Part shown: positions 45,009 through 60,298 of the stretch, piece after piece
Layout of the letters: each line of letters begins with the position of its first letter
Position numbering within the stretch: position 1 is the stretch's first letter
Assembly: GCA_002009975.1 (NCBI GenBank)
Contig: MTLP01000002.1
Coordinates: forward strand, 34,795-98,794
Length of the DNA stretch: 64,000 nucleotides
Source: Thermococcus sp. JdFR-02
Lineage (GTDB): Archaea; Methanobacteriota_B; Thermococci; Thermococcales; Thermococcaceae
Reading direction: 5' to 3'
Position numbers and translations under genes: made by a program
Notes under the pieces: generated by a model
Seen by the model: the letters and a program-made list of their open reading frames with translations, nothing else
Told to the model about the DNA's origin: nothing
Database searches by the model: none

Positions 45009-45166
45009 TTCTCACAGCTCTTTCGTTGATTAAAGTTCAACTCTTTCAATTTTAAGCTGATTTTACTTTCAATTTCATTTTAGTCAAAAAAGTTATGCAA
45101 ATAGAACAGAAGACAAAAATTAAGCATATCCATTAATGCAAAAGTGTGGAGAAATTCCAGAAATCA

Positions 45167-45481
45167 TTATAAGAGTAGAATGGTGCGGTGGCCGGGATTT
45201 GAACCCGGGTCGCCGGCTCGGAAGGCCGGAGTCCTAGACCAGACTAGACTACCACCGCACGAATCACCAATTCTAACTATCTCCACGCTTGATTTAAGAC
45301 CTAAAGCCACCTCAAGCAACTGCTCCACCAAACGGCTCACATTAGCGAACCTCTGCCTTGCCAATGTCCACACCTGTCTACGTATAGTCAAATTCACATG
45401 AATTCTCTCGTCCTCAAGGCGCTTTTTTGACGATTCCTGACCACTCCTGCCTTCTCTCTCAATACGTATTCCTACGTGCAT
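45167..45481 (-). CDS. N-terminal fragment of split SSV1-type integrase, Int(N), reading through tRNA-Gly
   Basis: GGTGA RBS and TTTATAAA upstream; frame through att (CGGSLVWSRTPAFRAG) matches the Int(C) frame. Confidence 0.85.
   Translation of the reverse strand: MHVGIRIEREGRSGQESSKKRLEDERIHVNLTIRRQVWTLARQRFANVSRLVEQLLEVALGLKSSVEIVRIGDSCGGSLVWSRTPAFRAGDPGSNPGHRTILLL
45181..45258 (-). tRNA. tRNA-Gly(TCC), intact copy with encoded CCA
   Basis: GCGGTGG...CCGGC-CTTCCGA-GCCGG...GGTTCAAATCC...CCACCGC-ACCA. Confidence 0.96.
45212..45259. repeat. Left att direct repeat (48 bp)
   Basis: Identical to 60018-60065. Confidence 0.95.
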
Positions 45482-45488
45482 ATACGTA

Positions 45489-45515
45489 TCACCAACTCAA
45501 ATTTATAAACTTTAC
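45489..45515 (-). promoter_or_regulatory. Integrase promoter (BRE-TATA) and RBS
   Basis: Minus strand reads GTAAAG-TTTATAAA-TTTGAGTT-GGTGA-TACGTAT-ATG. Confidence 0.7.
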
Positions 45516-45788
45516 GCTTATTAAACCATAATAAGAAAACCACAAAAAAACCAAAGAAAAACAATGAACAAAACCATACAAAAACAAACACAAAAAAGAA
45601 TGCGACATCAAAGGAGTCATTATAGCACTCGCACTACTAATTAGACTCGCATACATACTCAAAAAACTAAGCGAATGAAAATAATCACAAAAAGCTTAAT
45701 CACTTACGCTTTTTCTTCTTTTCTGGTGATTTTATAATTTCTAAAAATCAAAAAAATATAAATCTAACAAGACAACAAAGTATAATTC

Positions 45789-46532
45789 ATGAAGTGGAAT
45801 ATACTCTCAAAATATCTCAGCATTATTGTTTTAGGCCTTCCAATACTTGTAATATCTCTGATAGTATTTAACATTTTTAAGGCAGTATTTCTAGATTTAA
45901 TGCCAAATACTGAATTCTCTAAATTATTTGAGCCAATCCTTACAACGGAAAAATTTAAGCTACTCATTTTTGGAATCATAACAATCTCTGTTGGTCATAT
46001 TATGATAGACTACTTAAATGAGGTCAGAAGCATAAATAACAAACTTACTAAATCTAGATTTTCATTTCTCCTCATTTTTGTTCCAAGTATGATGATACTA
46101 GGTGGACTCTTATCACTATCACAAAATGCGAGTAATGTTATAATACTCGGATTAATTCTTCTAATAACAGTATTTTTGAAAGGAGTAGTTCGATTTGCTT
46201 CACTTATCCAGAACGAGTGGAATAAGGAGTATGTAATGTGGATGAAACTAATTTTTGGAATTTTATTTACAGCGCTAGAGGTCTCAGAGATAGTTGCATT
46301 AACTTTATTCTTTGCATCATTAGGTAGAATTGCTATGATATTAAATTATCAGGTTATAGGTGTCACCTTCATTATAGCCTCAATTGGAGGATTCACATTA
46401 AATCTTCTTCCAGATAAATGGTTGTTAGCTCCTTTTAAGCTCCGTTCAATTACCAGAAACTTATTTCTAAAATTACAAAAACAACAAGGAGAAATGCCAA
46501 AACATCCTCAAAAAACTAGGCGAAGGAAATAA
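45789..46532 (+). CDS. Polytopic membrane protein of the element
   Basis: About six hydrophobic segments, basic C-terminal tail. Confidence 0.7.
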   Translation: MKWNILSKYLSIIVLGLPILVISLIVFNIFKAVFLDLMPNTEFSKLFEPILTTEKFKLLIFGIITISVGHIMIDYLNEVRSINNKLTKSRFSFLLIFVPSMMILGGLLSLSQNASNVIILGLILLITVFLKGVVRFASLIQNEWNKEYVMWMKLIFGILFTALEVSEIVALTLFFASLGRIAMILNYQVIGVTFIIASIGGFTLNLLPDKWLLAPFKLRSITRNLFLKLQKQQGEMPKHPQKTRRRK

Positions 46533-46595
46533 CCACAAAAAATCCTAATTATCACCTTCTAGACTTCTTTTTCTCTTTCTTATCAGTCTTAATCA

Positions 46596-46757
46596 CTATT
46601 TCTCTGAATTCTCTTCTTTTTCAATTTCAAGAATTTTAATCTTCACGTAATCTCCTTCATTAAGCTCATACGCTTTGCGGAATGCTTTTGGTAAAACTAT
46701 CCTTCCAGCATTTCCAACTCTTAACTTAAACTCAACATCCACCTTTATCTTTGCCAT
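46596..46757 (-). CDS. AbrB/MazE/SpoVT-like DNA-binding protein (53 aa, below ORF-track cutoff)
   Basis: MAKIKVDVEFKLRVGNAGRIVLPKAFRKAYELNEGDYVKIKI...; GGAGG RBS. Confidence 0.82.
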   Translation of the reverse strand: MAKIKVDVEFKLRVGNAGRIVLPKAFRKAYELNEGDYVKIKILEIEKEENSEK

Positions 46758-46833
46758 TTGTATGACCTCCTAATGCCATCTCATTGTTATTTTAAATAAT
46801 CACCTTATAAAAACTTTGTCATTACGCCAAATG

Positions 46834-46920
46834 TATGCCATTTAAATGGTTAATATTTGGCAATTATTTGCCAAAAAGAATAAATACCACATATATGCCA
46901 ATTATATGGTGAATATTTGG
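46834..46920. repeat. Two 27-bp operator-like direct repeats 60 bp apart in a divergent promoter region
   Basis: TATGCCATTTAAATGGTTAATATTTGG and TATGCCAATTATATGGTGAATATTTGG (24/27 identical). Confidence 0.75.
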
Positions 46921-46961
46921 TATTACATATCTAATCAGCAATAATTGAATCAGCAAAACAA

Positions 46962-47192
46962 ATGGAGGCAGAAAAAATGGTTGGAACAATATTAGAGAAA
47001 ATAGAAATCTTTGAAGAAGATTTGAGCAGATTAAAAAGGTTCATTGAAAAAACAAAGTTAAAGAAAGAGCAACAGGTCTCAATACTATCCAATTACTTTG
47101 AGGACACAATATCGAAAGATTTTGAGTCTCTCAAGGTAGAGATTGAAACTTATCTGCACTACCGCCAATTAAAGATCAGATTTGAGGAATGA
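46962..47192 (+). CDS. Hypothetical protein (coiled-coil), first gene of the rightward operon
   Basis: 76-aa ORF; GGAGG precedes ATG 46977. Confidence 0.6.
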   Translation: MEAEKMVGTILEKIEIFEEDLSRLKRFIEKTKLKKEQQVSILSNYFEDTISKDFESLKVEIETYLHYRQLKIRFEE

Positions 47193-47198
47193 ACAGTT

Positions 47199-47726
47199 GT
47201 GGAGGTTATCAAAATGAGAATTCAGATGAAAGAAAAGGAAAGTGGAAAACTTGTCTGGATTGACACAGAAGACATTATCGTAGTTGGCTCATATGACCTA
47301 AAAGTATTTGTTGAAGACATCAATGAAAAAAGCTACCATCTAACTCTTGATCAACCTCTTTCAATAAAAGAGTGGATCAATGCAATGGAAATATTCAGCG
47401 AAATTATGAGAGGATACACACCAAAAGAAGTTGACAATAAGGAAGCAATTTCTTATCAAGAACTAAGACATATAATCAAAACATCAGACAGGTGGATAGA
47501 TTCTCCATTACTCTCAGATTTTCCATTGCGACACTCAATTACACTTAGAGCAGAAGCAAAAATAAGAAAGCTTCATGAACACATCATAGATACTCTTCCA
47601 TTTATTCTCATTGGTACAAGCATAGGATTACTTTTTGGAATAGGTGGTGTTATTCTCGGAGGAGTAATCGGCGCACTTTTTAGTGATGAATTCAAGAAGG
47701 TGATACTCCATGAAAATAACAGTTGA
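47199..47726 (+). CDS. Hypothetical protein with C-terminal glycine-zipper TM segment
   Basis: GTSIGLLFGIGGVILGGVIGALF. Confidence 0.65.
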   Translation: MEVIKMRIQMKEKESGKLVWIDTEDIIVVGSYDLKVFVEDINEKSYHLTLDQPLSIKEWINAMEIFSEIMRGYTPKEVDNKEAISYQELRHIIKTSDRWIDSPLLSDFPLRHSITLRAEAKIRKLHEHIIDTLPFILIGTSIGLLFGIGGVILGGVIGALFSDEFKKVILHENNS

Positions 47727-47865
47727 TGAAGTTTTAGCAGTTTTAGGAATAGAATTTGGCTTAGAGTATGCTATTGTAACAAAATCAAAAACAAAATCGA
47801 AGAATGGCTTATGCATTGCCTCACTATGTCTTGGATATCTTATTGGCAAGATAACGAGAAGGTGA
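47710..47865 (+). CDS. Small membrane protein (51 aa, not in ORF track)
   Basis: GGTGA RBS; MKITVDEVLAVLGIEFGLEY...LCLGYLIGKITRR. Confidence 0.55.
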   Translation: MKITVDEVLAVLGIEFGLEYAIVTKSKTKSKNGLCIASLCLGYLIGKITRR

Positions 47866-47918
47866 ATACCATGATTCATAACGAAGGAACTTTCAGTTTT
47901 CAAGGAGCGTGAGTGCTA

Positions 47919-48071
47919 ATGGCATCTGAAATATTGGCTTTTGTATTTGGTTTTGTAATAGTACAGGTTACACTAAGGTTTATTGTTGCAGTCATGTTCT
48001 GGAGGCAAGCAAAAGCTAATGGATTAGATATTAACTTCAAGGAAGCATTTGTAGAATTTCTTACTGAGTGA
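47919..48071 (+). CDS. Small single-TM protein (50 aa, not in ORF track)
   Basis: MASEILAFVFGFVIVQVTLRFIVAVMFWRQAK... Confidence 0.55.
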   Translation: MASEILAFVFGFVIVQVTLRFIVAVMFWRQAKANGLDINFKEAFVEFLTE

Positions 48072-48075
48072 GGAG

Positions 48076-48336
48076 GTGAGATTTATGAAAATTGAAGATC
48101 GAATTGAAAGAGAAATTATAGAAAAGCACAGATATGTTTTGATTTTAGAGGAAGAGATACTTAACAAACTCAAAGAAGAAATTAGCAAAGATGTTAAGAG
48201 ATATCTTGAATGTGAAGATTGTCAGATAAATATCATAAAGCTGAGATTAACAGCAGATATAGTAGTTGAAAGCTCTTTTGTTCCTATTCCTCTTCCACTT
48301 GCAAGACATTATGAGATTGAAGGTGAGGAGCAATGA
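48076..48336 (+). CDS. Hypothetical protein
   Basis: GGAGGTGA RBS; operon packing. Confidence 0.6.
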   Translation: MRFMKIEDRIEREIIEKHRYVLILEEEILNKLKEEISKDVKRYLECEDCQINIIKLRLTADIVVESSFVPIPLPLARHYEIEGEEQ

Positions 48337-48518
48337 TCACTGAAATAATAGGCATTTTCACAATTTTATGGCTTGGTGGACGATTAATCACCATTATAGC
48401 AATGTCTCTGATTTGGCTAGAGAGAAAGTTACGAAAGAAAGGCATTGACTTATACAAATCTTTGTTTCCTTTGACATATTTTGTTCAAAAAAGAGTTGAA
48501 ACCTGTGATGCTAAATGA
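48333..48518 (+). CDS. Small single-TM protein
   Basis: ATGA overlap, GGTGAGGAG RBS, hydrophobic N-terminal half. Confidence 0.6.
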   Translation: MITEIIGIFTILWLGGRLITIIAMSLIWLERKLRKKGIDLYKSLFPLTYFVQKRVETCDAK

Positions 48519-48788
48519 AAGTGTTAGGAATACACCAAAATACAAAAATTCCAAAATTTTTAAATAACTTGAGTAATATACCTGTACTGCCAAAGAATGT
48601 TAGAGTAATTAGTATAGTAAGGAAATATTACAGGAAACCGAAGGCATTATTGACATTAAAATCAGTAACTTTTCTCAGCAAATCAAGAAAATTAGTGGTT
48701 AGTGAAATTAAGCTTTCATTTTTGTTTTTAGAATAGTCAGCTCAGATGTTGAGATTGTTAGTGTGAGATATGTGAGGAGGTATCGAAT

Positions 48789-51359
48789 ATGGATGGTGAG
48801 AGTGAGAAATATTTTGGTGAGAGGAGTAAGGTAAGTGAGACGAAACAAAATTTTTTCAGTTTTTCAAACAGTGAAAAAGAAAAAAGAAGCAATAATATCT
48901 TTTTCATTTCAAATGAAAAAGTGAAAACAAACGAAAAATTAAATGAAAAACATGATGAAGCTGATTTTATCAACGAAATTATTGAAGCTGTAAGGCAATC
49001 ACTTAAACTTTTTCGTAATTATGATGCTATACCTTTTGCAGTTCTATTTCTGAATAGAGAAATAAGCGAAGAACAGCTAAGAACTGAAATTAAAAAATGG
49101 ATGGAAAAAGGCATCATTAAAAATTATAGCGTAGATTCTATGAAGCAAGCCTTATCAAGAGTTAAAAAGTCGCCATACGTTTTATCGAGAACAGATGAGC
49201 TTGGAATAACGTATTACCAGATGACAGATGAAGCAAAAACGAAAATCAAAAATAAATTAATAGTTTTAACTGAAGAAAAAGAAATTGAAGATAGTTCTAG
49301 AAAAGCTGAAGAAGCTGATAAGGAGACATTAATCACTTTATTTGTTGATTTCTTTAAGTCTTACATGGATTCTAATAGCAAGAAGGTTTACATAGAGAAG
49401 CTGAAAAACTTATTGACTGTAAGATCATCTAAGAGTCTGGTTATAGATTGGTCACATTTGAGTGCTTGGAATCCTAATTTAGCAGCACGTTTGATTAATG
49501 AGCCTGAAATGGTTATTAATGCTGCAGAAATTGCTATTACGATTGTATTTAAAGAGGAATTATTTAGTGATGAACAACCTAAGACTTTTGTTCGCTTCGT
49601 TAACTTGCCAAAGACTATTTTGATCAAGAATATTAGTAACGAGCATATCAACAAGCTGATTCAAATTGAAGCAGTAGTTACTAGAGTCGGAGAGTTAAAG
49701 CCGTTTGCTTACAAGTCCGTATTTGTATGCAAAGATTGTGGACATGAACATAAAAGAATTCAACAACCGTTTGCACCTGAAATTAAAGTTAAAAGATGTG
49801 AAAATTGCGGATCTAAAAATGTCGCATTGGATGTCACTAAATCCACATTTATACCTTTACAGAGTATTAGATTCCAAGAGTTACCTAACAACATGAAGCC
49901 TGGCGAACCACCAAGGATTTTGGATAGTATTGTATCGCATGATTTAGTAAATGTCCTAATTCCAGGAATGCGTGTTAGAATTGTTGGTATTTTGAGAGTA
50001 TTACCAGATTCTTCAAAGATTGCTACTTTCAAAAAGATGTTGGAAGTAAATAGTATAATTGTGCTAGACCAAGGATTAGAAGATATCGAGATTAATGATG
50101 AGGACATCATGAAAATTAAACAATTAGTTTCAGAGCCAAATCTTGAAGAGTTAGCTGTACAATCATTCGCACCTGCAATTTTTGGATATGATGACGTCAA
50201 ACTTGGTTTGATTTTATCCTTATTTAGTGCACCAAATGTTGAATTGCCTGATGGAATGAGATTAAGAGGTGAAATTCATTCACTCTTGATTGGTGATCCT
50301 TCTACTGCCAAATCTACATTAGTTAGATGGACTGTTAACATCGCTCCAAGAGCTGTTTATACAAGTGGTCGTGGTGCTACAGTCGCCGGTATTACTGCCG
50401 CCGCTGTCTGGGATGAAATTTCAAGAAGTTGGATGTTAGAAGGTGGTGTTTTAGTTTTAGCTGACCAAGGAGTGGCAATCATTGATGAATTGGATAAATT
50501 AAGTGAAGAAGCTAAAAAGAGTTTGCATGAAGCACTTGAACATGGTACAGTAAGTGTATCTAAAGCTGGAATTAATGCTAATTTGAATGCCAGAGCTACA
50601 TTAATTGCTGCAGCTAATCCTAAATATGGTCGTTGGAATCGGTATAAGAGTGTAGTTGAGCAGATTAATATTGATCCTGCATTGTTATCAAGATTTGACT
50701 TAATTTTTGTATTTATCGACGAACCAGAAGAAGAATTTGACAGTCAAGTTGCACACCATATTCTGAGTGTAAGAAATAAGAAAAAGGAGGCTATTTCGAC
50801 ACCAATTCCTTTAGACTTATTTAAAAAGTGGATTGCTTATGCGAAATTAAACATCAATCCAGTAATTCCTGAAAGCTTATGGAAGGATCTTGAGCAATAC
50901 TATGTTGAGTTAAGATCGAGTATTAAGAAATACGCAGAAAAACATGGTATTGTACCTATTCCTATTACTGTTAGACAGTTAGAGGCTATGATTAGATTGG
51001 CACAAGCTAGAGCTAGGATGTTTTTGAGAGAGAAAGTTACTGCAGAAGATATTATGAAAGCCAAAGAGATTATTGAGTACATGCTTAAACATATTGCAAT
51101 GGATTCAAGTGGAATTATTGACGTGAGTATTTTAGAAGTTGGAAAGTCTGCGAGAGAGATTGAAAAAATGGATATTGTTGTTGATTCCATTAAGTTTTGG
51201 CAAGATAAATTTGATTTTGGAGCACCTTTAGATGAAATTGTTAAGGAGTGTGAGAAAAAGAAGATTAATAGTACAGAGGTTAAGAAGATATTGGATAAGC
51301 TTATGGAGGAAGGAAAAGTTTATTCACCAAGAGATAGATATTACAGATTGGCTATGTGA
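48789..51359 (+). CDS. mcm: Element-encoded MCM helicase with long N-terminal extension
   Basis: CKDC..CENC Zn motif, GDPSTAKS, IDELDK, AAANP, SRFD, TVRQLE, C-terminal wHTH. Confidence 0.93.
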   Translation: MDGESEKYFGERSKVSETKQNFFSFSNSEKEKRSNNIFFISNEKVKTNEKLNEKHDEADFINEIIEAVRQSLKLFRNYDAIPFAVLFLNREISEEQLRTEIKKWMEKGIIKNYSVDSMKQALSRVKKSPYVLSRTDELGITYYQMTDEAKTKIKNKLIVLTEEKEIEDSSRKAEEADKETLITLFVDFFKSYMDSNSKKVYIEKLKNLLTVRSSKSLVIDWSHLSAWNPNLAARLINEPEMVINAAEIAITIVFKEELFSDEQPKTFVRFVNLPKTILIKNISNEHINKLIQIEAVVTRVGELKPFAYKSVFVCKDCGHEHKRIQQPFAPEIKVKRCENCGSKNVALDVTKSTFIPLQSIRFQELPNNMKPGEPPRILDSIVSHDLVNVLIPGMRVRIVGILRVLPDSSKIATFKKMLEVNSIIVLDQGLEDIEINDEDIMKIKQLVSEPNLEELAVQSFAPAIFGYDDVKLGLILSLFSAPNVELPDGMRLRGEIHSLLIGDPSTAKSTLVRWTVNIAPRAVYTSGRGATVAGITAAAVWDEISRSWMLEGGVLVLADQGVAIIDELDKLSEEAKKSLHEALEHGTVSVSKAGINANLNARATLIAAANPKYGRWNRYKSVVEQINIDPALLSRFDLIFVFIDEPEEEFDSQVAHHILSVRNKKKEAISTPIPLDLFKKWIAYAKLNINPVIPESLWKDLEQYYVELRSSIKKYAEKHGIVPIPITVRQLEAMIRLAQARARMFLREKVTAEDIMKAKEIIEYMLKHIAMDSSGIIDVSILEVGKSAREIEKMDIVVDSIKFWQDKFDFGAPLDEIVKECEKKKINSTEVKKILDKLMEEGKVYSPRDRYYRLAM

Positions 51360-51368
51360 GGTGAGCAC

Positions 51369-51770
51369 ATGGCTAAAGCTAAATATGTTATTTTCTTTGA
51401 TGGAGAAAAAGAATGGAAAATACCAATAGTTAAGTCAGATAGTGAATTAAGTAAGTATTACGAGGAGTTTAAGAAAGCTGGTAAGCCATTTATCCATATC
51501 AAACATATTGGTAGGACTGTCAAGTATAAGATAGATTTTGATCTAAATTCAGAGTTAACAGATGAGGCAAAAAATAAGCTTGAGGAAATAATTAGATATT
51601 ATACTTCAAAGTCAGCAGAATATTGCAAGAAGTGGCGCAATGATTTTGAATGGTATAGTTTATCCAGTCGACATGGCTATTTCATGGTACATACAAAATT
51701 CAAAGAAAAAGCAGCAATAGAAATTGCTTTAATTCTTTTTGATGAGTCTAATTGGAAGCATACTCTTTGA
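51369..51770 (+). CDS. Hypothetical protein
   Basis: GAGGTGA RBS directly after mcm. Confidence 0.65.
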   Translation: MAKAKYVIFFDGEKEWKIPIVKSDSELSKYYEEFKKAGKPFIHIKHIGRTVKYKIDFDLNSELTDEAKNKLEEIIRYYTSKSAEYCKKWRNDFEWYSLSSRHGYFMVHTKFKEKAAIEIALILFDESNWKHTL

Positions 51771-51978
51771 ATTGGTCTATCCTTTCTTTTTAGATTTTCA
51801 ATGAGTCCTAAAGTTCTTTGAATGGTAATTTTGTGGATATAATCGTATATTCAAACGTGGTACTATTAATTTCTATTTATCTATATATTTATTTTGACAG
51901 TTATATGTTATCATATGGTTTAACCGTAAAATCTATATAGTTATATGGTGGATATTAAGATAGAACCGGTTAAATCAG

Positions 51979-52629
51979 GTGGTTAAATTGGTAGAGAAGA
52001 AGAAATACGTTTGTTTAAAGTGTGGTAATATTTTTGATAGTAGAGCAAAAACTCCGAGATGTTCACTTTGCAAAAGTAGAAAGGTAGTAGAGTATGAGTT
52101 TTGGATTAAAAAGAAACAAGAAATTGAAAATAAGCAAAACGAAGAACAGAAATCAGAGTTTGATGTGGTTAATAATATGGTTAAGCCGGTTAAACCTGGT
52201 GATAATGTGGATTTAACCGGTGAAAAACCAGATAAAGATGTGGTTGAACTGGTGGTTAATGGTCAAAAACCGGTTAATCATTTGGAGGATGATGGCGAAA
52301 AATCACTTGTAAACGGTGAAACCAATGGTGAAAGTGAAAAACCACTAGGACCACATAATGATGAAAAGTCCAATGGCGAAATGGTTAAACATGCAGAAAA
52401 AGTGAAGCTTAAGAATATTAAAAAGAATGCAGGAATAAGTATTCCAATTCTTCCTGCCAGTTTCTTAGTCCTCGTTGGTGTTATAGTGTTGATTTACTGG
52501 AAGCGCAAAGAGATATGGAACATGATAGATTCCTTGTTTGGAAGAGAAAAAGATCAAGATCTTCTGTTAGACTATTCTTATCACTCTAAAAATCCTCTGA
52601 GGCTTAAAATTAGACAAAATTTAAGATAA
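51979..52629 (+). CDS. Zn-finger protein with low-complexity linker and C-terminal TM anchor
   Basis: CLKC...CSLC; ILPASFLVLVGVIVLIYW. Confidence 0.7.
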   Translation: MVKLVEKKKYVCLKCGNIFDSRAKTPRCSLCKSRKVVEYEFWIKKKQEIENKQNEEQKSEFDVVNNMVKPVKPGDNVDLTGEKPDKDVVELVVNGQKPVNHLEDDGEKSLVNGETNGESEKPLGPHNDEKSNGEMVKHAEKVKLKNIKKNAGISIPILPASFLVLVGVIVLIYWKRKEIWNMIDSLFGREKDQDLLLDYSYHSKNPLRLKIRQNLR

Positions 52630-52644
52630 AATAAGAAAGGTGAG

Positions 52645-53022
52645 GTGTTAAAGATGGCTTTAAGTGTGAGTGAGATTATTGCTAAGGTAAATAAGAAGCA
52701 TAGGTATTTGGTAATATTTAAGGATGGTAGAGAAGTGAAGCTGAAAGGAGATGAACTTAAGGAGAAGCTATTGAGTGGTCAAATTAGGCTTAGTGAGCTT
52801 AGAGATATCCAAGACTTGGATTATGATAGTCGTGTAGAAGAGATAAATGGACTAGAAAAGTTTCTAAAGAAAGTAGAGTGGCGCCTTGGTTCTTTAATGA
52901 AAGGAGGTCAAGACCTATCTAGTTGGTTCCAAACTATTCTAAAAGTGATAGGAATGTTAATTGGTCTTTTTATAGTAATTAAAGTTCTAAGTGGAACTTT
53001 AGGAGGTGGAAATAGTGATTAA
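52645..53022 (+). CDS. Hypothetical protein with C-terminal TM
   Basis: ILKVIGMLIGLFIVIKVL. Confidence 0.65.
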   Translation: MLKMALSVSEIIAKVNKKHRYLVIFKDGREVKLKGDELKEKLLSGQIRLSELRDIQDLDYDSRVEEINGLEKFLKKVEWRLGSLMKGGQDLSSWFQTILKVIGMLIGLFIVIKVLSGTLGGGNSD

Positions 53023-53170
53023 TCTTGAGGATAAAGAGACTATATATGGAAGCCTTATTTTTGGTCTTGGCTTGCTTTTTCTGTATACAATTGCTTTGAA
53101 TGTTAAGCAATGTAAGGATACATTAAAGGAGATTCATAAATTGTTGGCTACAACCACTACAAATGACTAA
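53015..53170 (+). CDS. Small single-TM protein (51 aa, not in ORF track)
   Basis: GGAGGTG RBS, GTG start; YGSLIFGLGLLFLYTIAL. Confidence 0.55.
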   Translation: MINLEDKETIYGSLIFGLGLLFLYTIALNVKQCKDTLKEIHKLLATTTTND

Positions 53171-53175
53171 ATCAG

Positions 53176-53373
53176 GTGAGTGTAGTGATAAAGGAGAAAG
53201 AAGTAGATAATAAGAATAAGAACCTAACACCAGAGGAAGAAAAGTTGGAGGAAATAGAGAAAGCTTTAGAATGGTGTATAGAACATCCTTTCATCTTTTC
53301 TCTTGTTCTAATAGTAGCCTTTTATTTTTTTACAGACTTTCCAGATTGTTGTTTTATCCTGTCCAAACTTTGA
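53176..53373 (+). CDS. Small membrane protein
   Basis: PFIFSLVLIVAFYFF. Confidence 0.55.
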   Translation: MSVVIKEKEVDNKNKNLTPEEEKLEEIEKALEWCIEHPFIFSLVLIVAFYFFTDFPDCCFILSKL

Positions 53374-53426
53374 ATGGAATTGTACAATTAGTGGATAGAC
53401 TCGGAAAAGATTAGGTAAAATCAGAG

Positions 53427-54101
53427 GTGATAAAAATGATAAATAAGACAATTAAGGTTGTTGACAAAAGTTTAGATTTGATACAAACTTTGTTTTATGT
53501 TAGTGTTGCTGGAGCAACGCTTTTTCTGCTTTACAAGCTTTATAAAATGCTTAAGAACTTAAATTTTGGTAAATTTGGAGAAGAAATAAAGAAAGCACTT
53601 AAGCCAACACCATTAACAGAAGAACAAAGGAGAGAGATTTCTAAGACTTCACCAAGCTTAGTTGGTGGAGCTTGGACTAAACCATCACCATTATACAAAG
53701 AATATCTTGAGAGAGTGAAAAGCGGTAAAGTTGATACAAGCATGACATTAAAGGAATTCTGGACTGAGGAGAGGAAAAAAGAGTATCTGGATAGAATAAA
53801 AAGATCAGAGTATTACAGGTATCTTGATACACAAAAAAGGCGTTATGAAACTTATGAGGAGTATTGGAAGAAACAAGGTTATACAAGCGTTCCAAGTGGT
53901 AATGTTGGAGTTCCAAGCCATATAAAAGCTATTCAAGAGAGGAGTAAAGCATTAGAGAGGTATTGGAAAGATAAAACAAAACAGGAACAACAGAGAAAAA
54001 GAGTAGCTCCATCTTTGCCAAAGCAATTAAGGATTAAAGTTTCACTTATGTCAAAGCCAAAATACACAATTCCAAAAGCAAAAACAGTGATAGCAATCTA
54101 A
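53427..54101 (+). CDS. Membrane-anchored basic hypothetical protein
   Basis: GAGGTGA RBS; N-terminal TM; Lys/Arg-rich remainder. Confidence 0.65.
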   Translation: MIKMINKTIKVVDKSLDLIQTLFYVSVAGATLFLLYKLYKMLKNLNFGKFGEEIKKALKPTPLTEEQRREISKTSPSLVGGAWTKPSPLYKEYLERVKSGKVDTSMTLKEFWTEERKKEYLDRIKRSEYYRYLDTQKRRYETYEEYWKKQGYTSVPSGNVGVPSHIKAIQERSKALERYWKDKTKQEQQRKRVAPSLPKQLRIKVSLMSKPKYTIPKAKTVIAI

Positions 54102-54117
54102 TTGGAGCATGAGTTCA

Positions 54118-54408
54118 TGCTTTTGAAGTTGCATCAGAAAAGCTGTAATTTCAAATGCTGCATAAGAATATCAATACAGTAGAATCTCTATAATAAGGTC
54201 ATAGGTCATATATGCCTTTTATTACCTTTGATTGATTATCCGAAAGTGGATAAAACCAAACAACATCAATTATTGGTGAATATCCTGGATATAGATCTTC
54301 AAATGGATACTCATCATATGCTAAGAATCCTAAGTCATTACCTAAGTAAATATGAGCTTCTTGTAGTTTCACATGAAAATTATCAACACATCGTTGTGCA
54401 CTACCAAT
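54118..54408 (-). pseudogene. Decayed PD-(D/E)xK nuclease-like gene fragment
   Basis: HVKLQEA..LG.DLGF.AYDEY...PIIDVVW, then 7-bp duplication GGTCATA (54197-54210), an in-frame stop, then YAAFEI. Confidence 0.5.
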
Positions 54409-54473
54409 TTAATTTCAGGCATAAAGGATTTTAGCTTTTTGTAAGACTTTAAACATAAGTGTATTCCACTAAC

Positions 54474-55474
54474 TCATGAAAGATAAAGTTTCAAAATTAG
54501 ATCTCTATTCTTTTGAACAAGTTCAATTTTGGTTAATTTGTTAATATTGCTACACAATTCTGCTTCAATTTTATTTCTAAGCGCTCTCAGCATAGAGTAT
54601 TGGACTATCTCATCATCTTCGCAATAAATTGCATAATTTTTTAGTTCTATTTCAAGATCTGGTTCTTTTTTCTCTGTTTTTTGACTCAACTTAAAAACCT
54701 TGACAAGTTCAAAGGTCAAATCCTTTATACACTCTTCATGATTATTGCTTTTGCTTCTAGCTCTTTTGTAAGCTCCACATTTCTCAAGGATTAACCTAGT
54801 CGAGTCTGCATTAACACTTTTTCTGAGTTTATGGAAAGTTATCTTCTTTTTGTTCCATTTCATTAACCAAGTATCCAAAGTAAAAATCGGTAAGCGTTGA
54901 TCCAGAATGTAGAGTTTCTCTCCAATTTTAACACCTACAGCAACATGACTAAAAAATGTAACAAAGTAAATTTCAGGATAAATATTCAGCAGTAGAGATG
55001 CAGTAAATCTTGCATAGTCTCTGCATATTGCTAGTTTGTACTTCAGGACTTTGTTTGATGACAGACCTGGTCGAATGGTGTCTATAAAATATCCAAATAG
55101 TTTTGCTAATTTTGATAATTTCGATTTTTCATATCTGCACAAAGGTCGATAACTAATTATTAAGTATACAATCACAAAGAAAGGCAATGTGATAAACAAT
55201 AAAGCTGGAATTAAAGTTAAAAATTGTGGTATCCTATAAAACTCACCAATAACGATTTCAACCACAATAATAACGAATAACACAATCCAGATTCCTAAAA
55301 ACCATGATACTATCCATCTTTCTGTCCAGTATCTTATATTTTTATCTTGCCATTCTAAGATATTAACTAATGTTTCTTTCTCAGAATCTCCTTTTAATTG
55401 ATTTACTAATCTTTGTATTTTTATGTCATCTATCTCTCCTAGTGTTGGACAAAATTCTCTATTCCTTTAATCAC
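54474..55474 (-). pseudogene. Membrane-associated transglutaminase-like (Cys-His-Asp) protein with a frameshift near its 5' end
   Basis: AICRDYA, SHVAVGV, YILD triad; frame open to 55466 without a start; GTG 55474 overlaps upstream TGA and comes into frame if the T4 run at 55451-55454 were T5. Confidence 0.7.
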
Positions 55475-57558
55475 TTTTGGAAATAACCGCATGAGTCATC
55501 ACATGCTTTATTAGTTAAATCTAAATATGCACTCAATACTAACGTTTTAACATTCTTATCCTTCAACAGATTTTTTGGAGGAGATATCTCTACTTTATAT
55601 CCACATTTTTCAAACTCTGGTTTTAAGTCTTCAAGAATTCTTTTTAGTTTCCTAAGTTGCTTATGGAAATTTTTATGCTTACCTGATTTCACTTCACTTA
55701 TGGAAAGCATAATTTGCTCTGGAGAAAATCCGATTATTAGGATATCCAATTCAACCTCTGGTTGGTTATTTTTCATTAACTTAGTGTCTAACGCTACTAA
55801 ATACCAATCCAATTTCTTCATTTTACCATAATACTCTAAAAGTTCAATCGCATACATAGGTTCTGCATACTTTCCTTTTTCTTTAACCGTATTAGAAAGG
55901 TTATCTTTTAGAATACTAGATGCAAAACTTAAATAATCGGATTTGATAACGAATGGAAAACTAAAAGTATTTAAGTATTCCTCTTCAATTGGAACTTCCT
56001 TAATATTAACCTCATATTCCTCAAAGAGTACTCGCAATATGTAATAAATAATATTAAAAGATCCATTTAGTGCAGTTTTAAGACTGTCTACTAGCCACAT
56101 ACTCAGAAATCGTTTCGTAACTATGGAATTCAGTTTAACATTTTTCTCAACTATCCTACTCCTTTTATTAATGCTATCAAGAGGATAATACAAAATGGTA
56201 CTAGTGTTTAATACAGCAAGTATCCTCGCAATTTTGTTAGGATATTGAGCTAAGTTTGGATATATAAACATCTGGTATTCTTTGCTTGCCATGTTATATA
56301 ATATTATACCAGGCATCTTTGTAAGAAAATTCAATTCACATGTAATCGGCTTGAATGACGTGATTTTCAAATCTCTAAAGTTAATTTCAATCACATCTTT
56401 TAAATCATTGTGTATTTTTCCTTGATGTTTCTCGGATAACATATTCCATATTTCCTTGTTAATTACATGCTTTATTTTTTCGTCGATTTTATTGGAGAGA
56501 ATATCCTCCAAAAGATCTTCCACTGAATCATATTTGCCAAAAACTTGACTTTCTAAGATACTAACAGCTCTAAGATGATAATAAGCTCCTTCTACACTTT
56601 GATACAGTGTTCTAGTGTAGAATTTTTCAATATTATCAACAACTTCTTTGTAATGTTTATTTTCGAGAAATAGTGGCAGTAAATTTAGAATTGCATGATA
56701 ATTAAGCTGTATAGGCGATTGAGCAACATATCCATCGAGAACAGTAAACGATAACTCTCTTAGTACTAGAAAATAATCTACAACATTCTCAACTTTTTCA
56801 GAATGCTCTAAATCTTTCTGTCTCTCAGGCTCTTCATAATTTAAATATCTCTTTCTAAACATCATAAGTTTTGTGAGCTCTCTTAACTTAGGAATTAACT
56901 CATCGTCATCTTGTAATTTTTCTGCGTTTTTAAGGATTTTAAGAAAGGTAAAGACTTTATGAACCTGCATAATTCTCTCTTGAATTATTATTGTCGCTAA
57001 CAACTTATATAGTTCATTTTTAACCTTTGTAGATTCCTTCTTAAAGAGTTTCGATTTTTCTATTTGCTCTCTAATTAATTTCAAAAATTTACTTTGACGA
57101 CTATTTTTTGATTTTATCCATCTCAGAAATGCATGTTCTGCAGCAAAAGTCATTTGAAAATGTCCTATTGCATATAATAAGGTCCAAGATTTTAATAATT
57201 CACTTAATGAAGAAAACCTAATACCATTAAGAGTTACAGATGTTGTCAGTCCATATTTTAGGAGTTTATTTACTTTGTCTTTCTCCTCTGCTTCATTAGT
57301 TTCCTTTTTCTTCTCTTTTTTGAATTTCTCCTGAGTTTCGAGTCTATTAATCAGAAGAAGCATTGTCAAGATGTGATCATAACGAGTATACTTAAAGAGT
57401 TTTTCTGAAAAGTAGTGTAACGCGCCTAGTTGCATAATATCCTTAAGTCGCAATATCTCATCTTTGAATAATTTGTATATTTGTCTGGACTCATCATACA
57501 AACTTATTTGTTGTTCTCCTATTATTGGTACTTCAATATGGAACTTATTATCCAACAT
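55471..57558 (-). CDS. Degenerate dNTPase-type HD domain fused to a C-terminal PD-(D/E)xK nuclease-like domain
   Basis: RLKDIMQLG, TRYDH, LLYAIGH (for LLHDIGH); C-terminal EVELDILI...ISEVKSG...KQL. Confidence 0.7.
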   Translation of the reverse strand: MLDNKFHIEVPIIGEQQISLYDESRQIYKLFKDEILRLKDIMQLGALHYFSEKLFKYTRYDHILTMLLLINRLETQEKFKKEKKKETNEAEEKDKVNKLLKYGLTTSVTLNGIRFSSLSELLKSWTLLYAIGHFQMTFAAEHAFLRWIKSKNSRQSKFLKLIREQIEKSKLFKKESTKVKNELYKLLATIIIQERIMQVHKVFTFLKILKNAEKLQDDDELIPKLRELTKLMMFRKRYLNYEEPERQKDLEHSEKVENVVDYFLVLRELSFTVLDGYVAQSPIQLNYHAILNLLPLFLENKHYKEVVDNIEKFYTRTLYQSVEGAYYHLRAVSILESQVFGKYDSVEDLLEDILSNKIDEKIKHVINKEIWNMLSEKHQGKIHNDLKDVIEINFRDLKITSFKPITCELNFLTKMPGIILYNMASKEYQMFIYPNLAQYPNKIARILAVLNTSTILYYPLDSINKRSRIVEKNVKLNSIVTKRFLSMWLVDSLKTALNGSFNIIYYILRVLFEEYEVNIKEVPIEEEYLNTFSFPFVIKSDYLSFASSILKDNLSNTVKEKGKYAEPMYAIELLEYYGKMKKLDWYLVALDTKLMKNNQPEVELDILIIGFSPEQIMLSISEVKSGKHKNFHKQLRKLKRILEDLKPEFEKCGYKVEISPPKNLLKDKNVKTLVLSAYLDLTNKACDDSCGYFQK

Positions 57559-57725
57559 GGCAATTTGTGTTTTGTACTTTAAAACTCTTAATTGTTTTGG
57601 TAATCACCATATAATGTTGTTAAAGTATTTTAAAAGTTAGTACTTTAAAAGTAAGCCTCTTTAAAAGTCAGCTTAGAAGACTTATTTTTCAAAAAGGAAG
57701 TGGATCTTATGACCTTGTAGGAGAT

Positions 57726-58172
57726 TTGATGAATGCGAAATTGAGATTTTATGAATTTGAACAAAAATCAGGTAGCTATGTTAGATTGGATAGTGATGTA
57801 GAGATAATAGAACCAAACAATTCTCTTAAGATCACATTATATGCAACATCAAGTATAGATGGTGCAAATAATGTGTGGTGTAATATTGCTCCATATGATG
57901 CATTGGATAATTTACTGACAGGAAAGTTTCTGGTTATGTTTGTAAGAACTCAAGGATTGACAAATTATCAGTTTGGTTTTTCAGTATCTCCACAGACGAA
58001 TAATGATAATGCAGTTTCATCTTTTGTGAATAACAGTGTTGATGCGGATAGAAAACTTGTGTTTTTACCATTTGAGACATTAGCTCCAACGCTAAGACTT
58101 AGAAAATATGCGAATGGTGGATATGGTTACGCATGGCTTGATGCAATATATCTTTTCAATAAGTTGCCTTGA
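57726..58172 (+). CDS. Beta-rich hypothetical protein, possibly the C-terminal remnant of a larger structural gene
   Basis: Asn/Ser/aromatic-rich, ends GYAWLDAIYL; stands alone after the cargo cassette. Confidence 0.5.
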   Translation: MMNAKLRFYEFEQKSGSYVRLDSDVEIIEPNNSLKITLYATSSIDGANNVWCNIAPYDALDNLLTGKFLVMFVRTQGLTNYQFGFSVSPQTNNDNAVSSFVNNSVDADRKLVFLPFETLAPTLRLRKYANGGYGYAWLDAIYLFNKLP

Positions 58173-58236
58173 TGCTTTTTTTCTCTTTCATTAAATTTTT
58201 AAATAGTGTTAAGGTAGAGATTAGAGTGGTGAGTAT

Positions 58237-58518
58237 ATGGCTGTTAAGAGTGCTGATCAGAGAGTGTTTGAGTTTATTGTTGGTGGTCTTGCTAAGGCTA
58301 TAAATGAAAAACCTGAGGATATTATTTGGTTCTTTCGAGTGAGAGAGTTAATGAGCGAGATGGAAAAGCCAATGAGTGATGAAAAGGCTTGGAAGATTAT
58401 TATGAAGGATAAGAAGTCCGTTAAAATGAGTGCTGAGGAGCTTCTTGAAGTTGCAAGGAGAGAGTTGAGGAAGTTTAGGAGGATTGAACGAAAGCTTAAG
58501 AAGCTTGGAGTGATTTGA
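58237..58518 (+). CDS. Putative antitoxin of PIN toxin
   Basis: Small charged protein directly upstream of the PIN gene; own TATA and GTGGTGA RBS. Confidence 0.65.
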   Translation: MAVKSADQRVFEFIVGGLAKAINEKPEDIIWFFRVRELMSEMEKPMSDEKAWKIIMKDKKSVKMSAEELLEVARRELRKFRRIERKLKKLGVI

Positions 58519-59013
58519 ATGCCTAAACTTAAGGTTGTTTTGGATACTTCTATTCTAATCAGTGCTTTAAAATCGAGAGATGTTACTCGAAGTCCTTCTT
58601 GGAAGATTTTAAAGCTCCTCAGTGAGGATAAGTTAGTTAATTATGGTTCTAAGGAGACTATTAAGGAAATGAAAGAGACGCTTGCAATTATTGGTTTGCT
58701 TATTGGAAAGCCTGATAAGGCTAAGGCTATTTATCACTTGGTTTTGAATCATACTAAGCGAGTTTCTCCAAGAATCAAATTTGAGGAATATAGAGAACTT
58801 GTTAAGCTGGTTGGTCATGCTAATGATGTTAAGTTTTTGAATGTTGTTTATGCCTCAAAGTCTCGCTATTTGATAAGTATGAACATTAAGCATTTGGTAA
58901 AACTGCGGAATCCAAAGACGCTTAAGTTTAATCTCAAAAGGCATTGGTTTTACATATTCAAGGATTCTGAATTTGTGAAATACATAAAGGAAAAATACAA
59001 ATGGAAAATCTGA
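58519..59013 (+). CDS. PIN-domain (VapC-like) toxin
   Basis: VVLDTSILISAL, ETIKE, NDVKFL, LISMN. Confidence 0.82.
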   Translation: MPKLKVVLDTSILISALKSRDVTRSPSWKILKLLSEDKLVNYGSKETIKEMKETLAIIGLLIGKPDKAKAIYHLVLNHTKRVSPRIKFEEYRELVKLVGHANDVKFLNVVYASKSRYLISMNIKHLVKLRNPKTLKFNLKRHWFYIFKDSEFVKYIKEKYKWKI

Positions 59014-59030
59014 AAAAGAGTGAAAAACGG

Positions 59031-60017
59031 TTAATCGAGTTTTGGAAACTTATCTGCAACTTTTTTGGAATATTCTTCTTTTGCATGCATTAGCAATTTT
59101 AGATAGTATTCTCGCAATACGGTTGCTGGAGTTTTTCCAGTTAGGAAACTAATGATACTCTCTTTTACATCATTCTTGAATAGGAAATTGCTAAACCATG
59201 TTCTTATTGTAACTGCTTGAAGTCCAGCTCTTTGTAATCTTTTAGAATATGCTTTGTAGGTTGTGAATTTTATTTTATCAATTTTTCTTAACAGTTCTTT
59301 TCCAAACCATGAAGGCATTATCGCTACAAATGCTCTTTTATGTCCTTTTGATACGAATTCAATGTCCATGTGTGCAATGTTATTTTCGAATTTCAATTTT
59401 TTCTTATCTTTCTTCAATGCTTTTAAGGCTTCTAATGCGTGTTCTAATCTTTGACCAGTGTAGAACATGAACTTTATTATTAGTGCTGTATCTTCTCCAT
59501 ATTTTTCCATAGCTTTCTTATAACCTTCTTTAATTTTGTCTAATTCGGCTTCTTCGAATTTTTTAGTTCTAACTTTTGTTTCTTTTCTTACAATGCCTTT
59601 TCTCCATGTTTGTTCTTCGTCTTTACTCATGTATTCGAAATAGCTTAGAAAAGTTAGGAATTTGCCTAAGCCGTTTGTTATGTTTTTCTTCATGTTTTCT
59701 TTGATTAATGCGTTTCTTAGTTCTCTCCAATCTTTTATTTTATACTTTTTGAAGAATTTTGTTAAGGCGTTCATGTAGTCTCTTATTGTGTCTTTTGAAA
59801 CTGGTTTTATTTTTGGTGGTGAGCCTTCTTTTAAGAATTGTCTAAATTCTTCTTTATATGTGTTCCAATAGTCGTTTAAGGTTTTTATTTCTGCTTTTTC
59901 AAGCATTAAAGCCTTTTCTTCTCTTTCTCTTATTTGTGGCTCATAAAAAATGTTAGCGCCTTTAGAAGTGTCCATTTCTAAGGTTTGACGTTCTGTTGGT
60001 TTTAATTCTTCAAAAGA
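59031..60017 (-). CDS. C-terminal catalytic fragment of split SSV1-type tyrosine integrase, Int(C)
   Basis: YTGQRLEH (R), KGHKRAF (K), TIRTWF (R), FLTGK, VLREYY (Y); frame open from att to ATG 59975. Confidence 0.88.
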   Translation of the reverse strand, partial: SFEELKPTERQTLEMDTSKGANIFYEPQIREREEKALMLEKAEIKTLNDYWNTYKEEFRQFLKEGSPPKIKPVSKDTIRDYMNALTKFFKKYKIKDWRELRNALIKENMKKNITNGLGKFLTFLSYFEYMSKDEEQTWRKGIVRKETKVRTKKFEEAELDKIKEGYKKAMEKYGEDTALIIKFMFYTGQRLEHALEALKALKKDKKKLKFENNIAHMDIEFVSKGHKRAFVAIMPSWFGKELLRKIDKIKFTTYKAYSKRLQRAGLQAVTIRTWFSNFLFKNDVKESIISFLTGKTPATVLREYYLKLLMHAKEEYSKKVADKFPKLD

Positions 60018-60065
60018 GCCGGCTCGGAAGGCCGGAGTCCTAGACCAGACTAGACTACCACCGCA
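60018..60065. repeat. Right att direct repeat = truncated 5' part of tRNA-Gly
   Basis: Identical to 45212-45259; T-arm and 3' acceptor strand absent. Confidence 0.95.
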
Positions 60066-60073
60066 AAATGACG

Positions 60074-60150
60074 TGGTGGGGCGAGGGGGATTTGAACCCC
60101 CGACACCCGGATCTTCAGTCCGGCGCTCTCCCAGGCTGAGCTACCGCCCC
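60074..60150 (-). tRNA. tRNA-Phe(GAA) with encoded CCA
   Basis: GGGGCGG...CCGGA-CTGAAGA-TCCGG...GGTTCAAATCC...CGCCCC-ACCA. Confidence 0.96.
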
Positions 60151-60180
60151 ACACCCAGAATATAGAAGGTCAGGATCATC

Positions 60181-60195
60181 TTATAAATCTTGCGG
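60181..60195 (-). promoter_or_regulatory. Host tRNA promoter (BRE-TATA)
   Basis: Minus strand CCGCAAGA-TTTATAA about 30 bp upstream of tRNA-Phe. Confidence 0.7.
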
Positions 60196-60298
60196 TACTT
60201 GGATTAGCATGAAAACAATTGCTTGTTAACTTTATTTCAACATAAGTGTTATATAATAAGAAAATCATTTTTGATTATGACAACTTGGAGGTTTGCAA

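Follow-up and report, generated by a model that had tools for sequence, protein, structure and literature searches.

A split SSV-family integrase gene and the predicted dependence of a single-copy tRNA-Gly(UCC) gene on an element promoter in Thermococcus sp. JdFR-02

Background

Integrases of the pTN3 type are reported to swap promoters upon integration into tRNA genes of Thermococcales, the rebuilt tRNA coming to lie behind the integrase promoter and the host tRNA promoter facing the C-terminal part of the split integrase gene (Badel et al. 2021, Cossu et al. 2017; PMC8371274 sections 18 and 30, PMC5495485 S2 Fig legend). A possible expression of this C-terminal part, Int(C), is stated in the same accounts (PMC8371274, PMC5495485), credit being given in PMC8371274 to Krupovic and Bamford 2008 along with Cossu et al. 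2017. The promoter-swap interpretation is already published for that lineage, and is not new in principle. Here we describe an element of a sister lineage, which has entered the 5' half of a tRNA-Gly(UCC) gene of Thermococcus sp. JdFR-02 (GenBank assembly GCA_002009975.1). The element was found in a 64,000-nucleotide stretch of contig MTLP01000002.1 (positions 34,795 to 98,794, forward strand), referred to as the window; coordinates are those of the window unless a contig is named.

Results

An integrase gene split at a tRNA-Gly attachment site

A repeat search in the interval 44000-61500 revealed one exact direct repeat of 48 nucleotides (nt), at 45212-45259 and 60018-60065, the sole long exact repeat of the region. 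The repeat is made up by one base upstream of tRNA-Gly(TCC) and the 5' 47 nt of this tRNA. ARAGORN places tRNA-Gly(TCC) at 45181-45258 and tRNA-Phe(GAA) at 60074-60150, both on the reverse strand, and the truncated tRNA-Gly copy begins 9 nt past the 3' end of tRNA-Phe. The attachment site (att) resides inside an integrase open reading frame (ORF), the 48-nt repeat being in frame in both halves of the gene. From the ATG at 45481 to the end of att the frame of the N-terminal part, Int(N), measures exactly 90 codons; it resumes uninterrupted at 60017 and reaches a stop at 59031, the joined protein being 418 amino acids long. The ORF starting at an internal ATG at 59975, in Int(C), encodes 314 amino acids. 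Repeat, frames and Pfam match (see below) together establish that the integrase gene is split.

A preliminary description of the region, made from the letters alone, had recognized the 5' 47 nt of tRNA-Gly in the repeat, the 9-nt distance of the truncated copy from tRNA-Phe, the split of the integrase gene with the separate ATG of Int(C), and TATA boxes ahead of the integrase gene and of the host tRNA unit (at about 60181). All these are confirmed; the boxes are TTTATAAA (45502-45509) and TTTATAAG (60180-60187). The features to which the text refers are listed below, promoter scores being those of the matrix described further on (BRE, transcription factor B recognition element; T5, T6 and the like, runs of five, six or more T residues).

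45181..45258, reverse strand: intact tRNA-Gly(TCC) called by ARAGORN, the sole Gly(TCC) gene in the assembly
45212-45259, reverse strand: attL, spanning the 5' 47 nt of the intact tRNA-Gly(TCC)
45260..45481, reverse strand: Int(N), 74 codons ahead of the tRNA; the ORF extends through the tRNA to a stop at 45167
45502..45517, reverse strand: integrase promoter P_int, GCGTAAAGTTTATAAA, 20.1 bits, 20 nt from the integrase ATG and 243 nt upstream of tRNA-Gly
59031..60017, reverse strand: Int(C), C-terminal 328 codons with the catalytic domain and the internal ATG 59975, assigned by Pfam PF16795 and frame continuity
59945..59950, reverse strand: sense-strand T6 tract, 68 nt past att and 25 nt downstream of ATG 59975
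60018..60065, reverse strand: attR, exact 48-nt repeat, BLAST match to tRNA-Gly positions 1-47
60074..60150, reverse strand: tRNA-Phe(GAA), intact host gene called by ARAGORN
60180..60195, reverse strand: host BRE/TATA, CCGCAAGATTTATAAG, of the ancestral tRNA-Phe/tRNA-Gly unit, 18.4 bits, 29 nt upstream of tRNA-Phe

Taken as a whole, the explanation that we regard as likely is that the interval represents an integrated element of plasmid or virus type, about 14.8 kb long, the integrase gene of which was split by its own integration. Entry would have occurred by site-specific recombination catalysed by the element's own ('suicidal') tyrosine integrase of the SSV family, at an attachment site within the integrase gene corresponding to the 5' 47 nt of host tRNA-Gly(UCC), in sense direction. 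As the sequence shows, an intact tRNA-Gly has been rebuilt next to Int(N), and the ancestral promoter of the two tRNAs has remained at the opposite end, ahead of tRNA-Phe, the half tRNA and Int(C).

Empty site and copy number of tRNA-Gly(UCC)

All 18 other genomes of the family covered by the search conserve tRNA-Phe together with about 45 nt of sequence ahead of it. Eleven of these loci were fetched for comparison with the empty site. The same BRE/TATA (ACCGCAAGATTTATAA-like) precedes tRNA-Phe in 11/11, and tRNA-Gly(TCC) follows tRNA-Phe at a distance of 4-17 nt in eight; the other three, from one genus, feature a lone tRNA-Phe, tRNA-Gly(TCC) being located elsewhere with its own canonical promoter. 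Both counts indicate that the ancestral site was a Phe/Gly tandem under one promoter, and the empty site envisaged in the preliminary description is hence borne out by the relatives.

The assembly (44 contigs, 2.36 Mb, 99.99% marker completeness) contains 43 tRNAs according to ARAGORN, Gly(TCC), Gly(CCC) and Gly(GCC) being found once each. Neither ARAGORN nor BLAST detected a second tRNA-Gly(TCC) in the 44 contigs; BLAST queries of tRNA-Gly(TCC) and of the complete element matched the one gene, its 47-nt fragment and the two paralogues (CCC and GCC) only. The relatives also carry a single Gly(TCC) gene each, and the tRNA may still be called single-copy, as had been supposed. GGA accounts for 46% of the Gly codons in the long ORFs of the genome, and tRNA-Gly(UCC) is therefore the most heavily used glycine isoacceptor.

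The tRNA-Gly(TCC) of the window differs from the family consensus (loci L005-L012) at four positions (16, 29, 40 and 47), all inside the 47-nt att part, the 3' 31 nt being identical to those of most relatives. The chance of finding all four in the att part by position alone is about 0.13, and the pattern is a hint at most.

The promoter of the rebuilt tRNA-Gly

Promoters were sought with a 16-column BRE/TATA matrix, constructed from the sequences preceding the 36 stand-alone tRNA units in the genome; tRNA-Gly(TCC) and six tRNAs located at most 60 nt behind another tRNA were kept out of the training set. Sites scoring at least 9.5 bits were found in 32/36 units, 24-42 nt from the mature 5' end. 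Scores of the training promoters vary from -0.2 to 21.0 bits (median 16.4), and four units have no matrix site. The latter, Ser(GGA), Pro(GGG), Ser(TGA) and Asp(GTC), reside on contigs C3 and C14, score at most 4.3 bits within 80 nt upstream, and may be co-transcribed with upstream genes or be under unusual promoters.

P_int ranks first in the 362 nt that precede tRNA-Gly, with the runner-up at 0.1 bits. No T5 run is found between P_int and the 3' end of tRNA-Gly, and the region just upstream of P_int is rich in T5-T7 runs. A dedicated promoter directly upstream of 45258, which would have spoken against the swap proposed earlier, is not detected by the matrix. The same layout recurs in 7/7 loci in which an Int(N) homologue adjoins an intact tRNA (Gly-TCC, Leu-CAA three times, Pro-CGG, Ser-CGA, and an Ala-GGC-like gene start at a contig end): the top site scores 12.3-20.1 bits and lies 242-264 nt upstream of the tRNA, intervening sites are all at or below 6.4 bits, T5 runs are missing, and the Int(N) stretch has a higher G+C content than the sequence upstream of the promoter. 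The TATA box is placed 20 nt before the ATG in three pTN3-type loci also, scores being lower (8.5-12.7 bits) because the BRE part differs.

A conserved GGTGAT(A/G)..TAT block resides between the TATA box and the integrase ATG (45482-45501), and is found at the same place in six related loci. The TATA box is only 20 nt from the ATG. Transcripts probably start at or beside the ATG, and the block may accordingly be a promoter-proximal element, not a ribosome-binding site.

As judged from the arrangement of sites, tRNA-Gly is best viewed as transcribed from the integrase BRE/TATA, in the form of a precursor starting at the integrase promoter and featuring a 5' leader of about 220 nt which bears Int(N) codons; RNase P and 3' processing would then free tRNA-Gly from the precursor. 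The geometry of the promoter swap claimed in the preliminary description is thus supported, P_int being the sole promoter-grade site upstream of tRNA-Gly and the host promoter facing Int(C); transcription itself is what we infer from it.

A few observations weigh against transcription from P_int. The matrix recognizes consensus BRE/TATA only, a site which 4/36 tRNAs of the genome lack, and this leaves some room for a weak unconventional promoter near tRNA-Gly. Moreover, a TTAAAT-like stretch is found 33-40 nt upstream of the tRNA, the usual promoter distance, with a score of -4.6 bits. Were this stretch a cryptic promoter inside the Int(N) coding sequence, it could drive tRNA-Gly, and the integrase promoter would be unneeded. 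The sequence TCTTAAATC ends 32-33 nt before the mature 5' end, within the range of genuine tRNA TATA boxes (24-42 nt), TTAAAT/TTTAAAT-like codons are present there in 5/7 Int(N) loci, and some genuine tRNA promoters of this genome use CTTAAAT. Yet the negative score reflects the lack of a BRE, the spacing to the tRNA is not conserved (32 nt here vs. 41-43 nt in four other loci), the motif is absent in 2/7 loci (L054 and L056), and its letters are accounted for by the conserved A-L-G/N-L-K codons; a cryptic promoter is on the whole improbable. Transcription from P_int could also matter little to the host, if unassembled sequence contained another tRNA-Gly(UCC) gene or the element in episomal form. 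The assembly is a draft of 44 contigs, which counts against dependence of the host on this copy, and the number of tRNAs called by ARAGORN (43) implies that a few tRNA genes, for example intron-bearing ones, went uncalled. The marker completeness, the BLAST results given above and the single Gly(TCC) gene of the relatives all argue against a hidden copy, which we regard as very improbable.

The catalytic lineage of the integrase

Int(C) matches Pfam PF16795 (1.9e-30; 106 bits vs. a cut-off of 27) and the integrase family phrog_5127 (7.8e-23), and aligns to the structures of the SSV1 integrase catalytic domain (3UXU, 4DKS and 3VCF; E 2e-5 to 1e-4). Residues R206, K243, A284 and R288 (P0002 numbering) are invariant in the protein alignment used (A1), and the C-terminal Tyr in 'REYYL' aligns with 'TQHYV' of SSV1 integrase, the tyrosine of which we take to be catalytic; the assignment of this Tyr depends on that assumption. 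As had been proposed, all catalytic residues appear from the alignment to reside within Int(C).

Matches to Int(C) at E 1e-6 or better were found in 54/97 genomes of the family. The 29 best loci outside the window were classed according to att. In 25 of them Int(C) is directly preceded by a tRNA 3' part lying antisense to int (3' class). Three feature the 5' part of a tRNA in sense (5' class; Pro positions 1-28/44, Leu-CAA 1-48, Leu-CAA 1-41), and one, L038, is a pseudogene with no tRNA match. In a maximum-likelihood tree of 33 catalytic parts, from which L038 was omitted and in which four database proteins (P0004-P0007) were assigned to the 5' group on protein sequence alone, the two classes separate with 100/100 support, the window falling in the 5' class. 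The nearest relatives are metagenomic proteins (60-64% identity). In a full-length metagenomic relative of 415 amino acids (49% identity), the same N-terminal domain leads into a tRNA-like peptide different from that of the window integrase.

Plasmid and phage collections queried with Int(C) did not return pTN3, which surfaced via its MCM helicase only; the miss reflects real divergence of the catalytic domain. A first contig-wide locus scan with Int(C) yielded no relative, and the scan with alignment A1 two loci. A ribbon-helix-helix fold had been supposed for Int(N); all seven Int(N) sequences give only sub-threshold matches to the CcdA antitoxin family (best E 0.0015). The AlphaFold2 model of Int(N) is poor and all-helical (mean predicted local distance difference test score 67, predicted template modelling score 0.39).

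Int(C) expression and a conserved oligo-T tract

The host promoter now reads tRNA-Phe, the 9-nt spacer bearing a T4 run, the half tRNA, a T4 run after att, and Int(C). Its transcript would yield tRNA-Phe and continue through the half tRNA into Int(C). No Shine-Dalgarno motif is found ahead of ATG 59975. A Shine-Dalgarno had been supposed before the internal ATG of Leu-class Int(C) sequences also, and was discarded, none being present in the DNA.

The T6 tract at 59950-59945 is the sole T5+ run from tRNA-Phe to the Int(C) stop. Equivalent tracts were sought in 18 Int(C) loci targeting tRNA 5' parts, i.e. the window, three relatives of the same clade and 14 pTN3-type loci, 17 of which have a recognizable 5' tRNA fragment. 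A T5 or T6 run is located 66-81 nt after the end of att in 17/17 loci of this 5' class, and is the sole T5+ run in about 1 kb in 13/17; a T5-T6 tract after att is also found in a further element, G102:C91 (tract loci in all: window, L014, L016, L021, L077-L086, L088-L090 and L091). The tract encodes [V/I]-F in a [D/N]-[V/I]-F motif, the codons being always GTT or ATT followed by TTT, while adjacent synonymous sites vary. Based on the codon usage of each ORF, the chance of an xTT TTT pair is 0.04-0.27; the 17 loci fall into six clusters at 80% identity, and the product of one value per cluster is about 8e-7. Euryarchaeal RNA polymerases are described as able to terminate at short poly-U without added factors (PMC7289017). 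The T5-T6 tract may at most be called a candidate attenuator of read-through into Int(C). In the window, the T6 68 nt after att probably stops part of the transcripts, and Int(C) protein would be low at best. The words terminator, termination, read-through and readthrough are absent from PMC8371274 and PMC5495485, and the main text of the T. kodakarensis primary transcriptome (PMC4247193) makes no mention of integrase, TKV, provirus, viral or 'tRNA genes'.

Several data are at odds with this view of the tract. On the sense strand of long ORFs in this genome T5+ runs occur 1.8 times per kb, and a T6 need not terminate efficiently. In 11/25 loci of the 3' class, in which int is antisense to the tRNA and no host promoter reads in, a T5+ run is found within 150 nt after att, at offsets 106-131 in nine, and just 6/17 loci of the 5' class have an in-frame ATG in the first 50 nt past att. 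The tract may not be transcriptional at all, being either a DNA feature of attP involved in integrase binding or bending, or a by-product of the [DN]-[VI]-F motif, which is conserved at the protein level in 17/17 loci. This is a real possibility, falling a little short of probable: the invariable choice of xTT TTT among varying neighbours, with the low combined probability given above, and the position of the tract as sole T5+ run at 13/17 loci are not readily explained by the protein motif. The TKV4 Int(C) has furthermore been suggested to be functionally expressed (PMC8371274), and the host tRNA promoter could keep Int(C) made from ATG 59975 in useful amounts, the split integrase being partly active or open to complementation. 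The promoter facing Int(C) is strong (18.4 bits) and conserved, only T4 runs precede the ATG, Int(C) contains all catalytic-domain residues, and TKV4 was excised in vivo when the inactive Int-pTN3 Y428A was supplied, which was taken to mean that TKV4 Int(C) is made (PMC8371274 section 30). Useful expression is nevertheless rather unlikely, given the lack of a Shine-Dalgarno, the scarcity of in-frame ATGs close to att in the class, and the synonymously conserved tract, here 25 nt into the ORF; truncated Int(C) of the SSV type is poorly active alone according to a review (PMC8371274), and the TKV4 integrase is merely distant kin of the window integrase. The statement of the preliminary description that Int(C) may stay expressed holds as to the promoter facing it, and is weakened in the window by the missing Shine-Dalgarno and the conserved T6. 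Partial termination at the tract, with little Int(C) made, is the reading retained here.

Spread of Int(N) and decayed relatives

Homologues of Int(N) (45-80% identity) are found directly upstream of intact tRNAs in six other loci, and Int(N) is related to the N-terminus of Int-pTN3 (32% identity, E 5e-7). Split integrases of the pTN3 type, 63-99% identical to Int-pTN3, reside in 16/97 genomes, their targets being Leu-CAA (positions 1-42) or Ser-CGA (positions 1-40). In G102:C91, targeting an Ala-GGC-like tRNA, Int(N) is 77-80% identical to the window Int(N), and Int(C) just 30% identical. The sharing of Int(N) among integrases with diverged Int(C) indicates that the promoter and Int(N) travel as a module with several catalytic domains, in line with the hybrid integrases reported from the pT26-2 family (PMC7253208).

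The G102:C91 contig (L054, L091) is 16,192 bp long, and both ends carry the same 42-nt 5' half of the Ala-GGC-like tRNA; the contig would be an entire element cut at its att repeats, or else a circular episome.

Reduced elements retain the promoter end. In the complete genome G043, a promoter and an intact Int(N) precede the genome's only tRNA-Leu(CAA) 5' sequence, and neither a second att copy within two mismatches nor an unpaired integrase catalytic domain is found in that genome. A pTN3-type remnant of 1851 bp from att to att in G064 (L093, C46:9300-12900) consists, in order, of host promoter, half tRNA, truncated Int(C), about 1.1 kb of other sequence, promoter (14.8 bits), Int(N) and tRNA-Leu(CAA). 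In G071 (about 2.8 kb from Int(C) start to Int(N) end) and G077 (6.1 kb) pTN3-type pairs are found, with Int(N) still beside the tRNA, the host-side att copy of G071 being itself truncated. These cases were found via an Int(N) search, and the sample is biased towards Int(N) retention. The earlier suggestion that partial deletion of the element is penalized thus receives limited support: G043 and G064 do keep promoter, Int(N) and tRNA, in a sample subject to that bias.

At the G043 locus (L092, C1:476000-495900) the promoter and Int(N) ahead of the tRNA are located at about 10060-10400 in locus coordinates. Upstream are found an AbrB-like small ORF, an iteron-like GGTGAAAA array, and then DUF6884, TGT-like, DUF5591 and 1451-amino acid ATPase genes. 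The G064 remnant carries small ORFs on the opposite strand.

Other genes of the element and of the host genome

Additional features of the element are the following.

48789..51359, forward strand: MCM helicase of 856 amino acids, Pfam MCM (6.8e-81) plus MCM_OB, lid and N domains, phrog_10371 (1.8e-182)
51979..52629, forward strand: zinc-finger-type protein, homologue of pTN3 TNaP3-03 (tblastn 29% identity, 2e-13, pTN3 positions 932-1528)
54474-55283, reverse strand: transglutaminase-like DUF553 protein, cargo (Pfam DUF553, 3.1e-17)
55471-57558, reverse strand: protein of 695 amino acids, cargo
58237..59013, forward strand: small ORF (58237-58518) and PIN-domain protein (58519-59013; Pfam PIN_3, 4e-12), convergent with Int(C)

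The MCM helicase is likely the replication protein of the element. A PIN homologue also adjoins Int(C) in two related elements (32-33% identity). The 695-amino acid protein has no match in Pfam, PHROG or PADLOC, PADLOC found no defence-system match among 12 element proteins, and PHROG matches were limited to MCM, integrase and, weakly, the PIN protein. Neither a double-jelly-roll capsid protein nor a FtsK/HerA packaging ATPase was detected by tblastn to pTN3, Pfam or PHROG, searches which distant homologues could escape.

A non-coding stretch of very high T content (45520-45790, reverse strand) adjoins P_int on its upstream side and holds a block, TTCTTTGGTT..TTTTT..GGTTTTCTTATTAT, which recurs in two related elements (L054 and L057). 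The stretch may serve as upstream terminator, as origin or as binding region.

Four further SSV-family integrase fragments, 24-36% identical to the window Int(C), are scattered in the host genome (C19:1412-2200, C11:38900-39688, C7:44073-44843, C14:18054-18776), which implies that the host carries several integrated elements; a 3' fragment of a Gly-type tRNA is found at C7:44840-44884. Ten contigs (C18, C22, C24-C26, C32, C37, C38, C43 and C44) have a G+C content of 42-49%, vs. 36-40% in most of the assembly, and may be foreign or mis-binned DNA; contamination of the assembly is given as 1.76%.

Discussion

To judge from the promoters predicted here, the single-copy tRNA for the commonest Gly codon of the genome appears dependent on a mobile-element promoter. 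Such dependence would link the fitness of the host to a portion of the element, and may account for the persistence of integrase front ends by tRNA genes after the element has decayed. A broader scheme can be drawn, which we put forward tentatively and hold to be doubtful. P_int, Int(N) and the 5'-half att would form a portable promoter-donating module, associated with no fewer than three widely differing catalytic domains and five or more tRNA targets. After insertion the host would depend on the module for an essential tRNA, and promoter, Int(N) and tRNA would survive when the element decays, a pattern which G043 and G064 fit, the element promoter becoming the permanent promoter of the tRNA. 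The T5-T6 tract would be a built-in substitute for the terminator lost by the truncated tRNA, shielding the provirus from the strong tRNA promoter of the host and throttling the integrase.

SSV1 (Fuselloviridae), the prototype of the family, resembles the window element in that attP resides inside the int ORF and the gene is split upon integration at a tRNA, identity being low. SSV1 has a crenarchaeal host, and uses the downstream part of tRNA-Arg.

The integrases of pT26-2 and TPV1, from Thermococcales, are SSV-family members matching PF16795 as the window integrase does, and are its nearest named catalytic kin (29-30% identity; 26-36% in the 25 genomic loci of the pT26-2 class). They differ in att, which is the 3' part of the tRNA, antisense to int, in 25/25 loci (positions about 78 down to about 33); the tRNA is therefore left with its native promoter, and Int(C) is not read from a promoter of a host tRNA. 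The class forms a clade separate from the window (100/100). According to a review, another integrase family also enters the promoter side of tRNA genes, so that the element must supply transcription (PMC8371274). The integrase in question belongs to a different family, and its gene is not split.

The closest parallel is provided by pTN3 (Thermococcus nautili) and TKV4 (T. kodakarensis). In these, as in the window, attB is the 5' half of a tRNA, sense to the integrase, and integration divides the gene into Int(N) and Int(C) and leaves the rebuilt tRNA without its own promoter, behind that of the integrase, the host promoter facing Int(C). Both pTN3 and the window element encode an MCM (31% identity) and a zinc-finger protein (29%). 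The catalytic parts, in contrast, are only 20% identical (E 0.04), whereas Int(N) is homologous (32%, E 5e-7); in the tree, Int-pTN3 (record KF527230.1; 455 amino acids, SSV1-like) is a long branch outside the window clade and every supported group. The target differs as well, being tRNA-Gly(UCC), the second gene of a Phe/Gly tandem, instead of a stand-alone tRNA-Leu(CAA) or tRNA-Ser(CGA), and unlike pTN3 and TKV4, which are PRD1-like proviruses, the window element has no detected double-jelly-roll capsid or packaging ATPase. The window integrase accordingly combines a pTN3-type N-terminal module with a different catalytic lineage in the arrangement known from pTN3 and TKV4; in the account of the element as a whole, transcription of tRNA-Gly from P_int included, we have considerable, though not full, confidence. 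The case extends the published principle to a second integrase lineage, to a new target, tRNA-Gly(UCC) in a two-tRNA unit, and to an MCM-bearing element with no recognizable capsid genes; it adds, as new leads, a conserved oligo-T tract possibly controlling read-through into Int(C), and comparative hints of a retention of the promoter-donating end when the rest of the element is lost.

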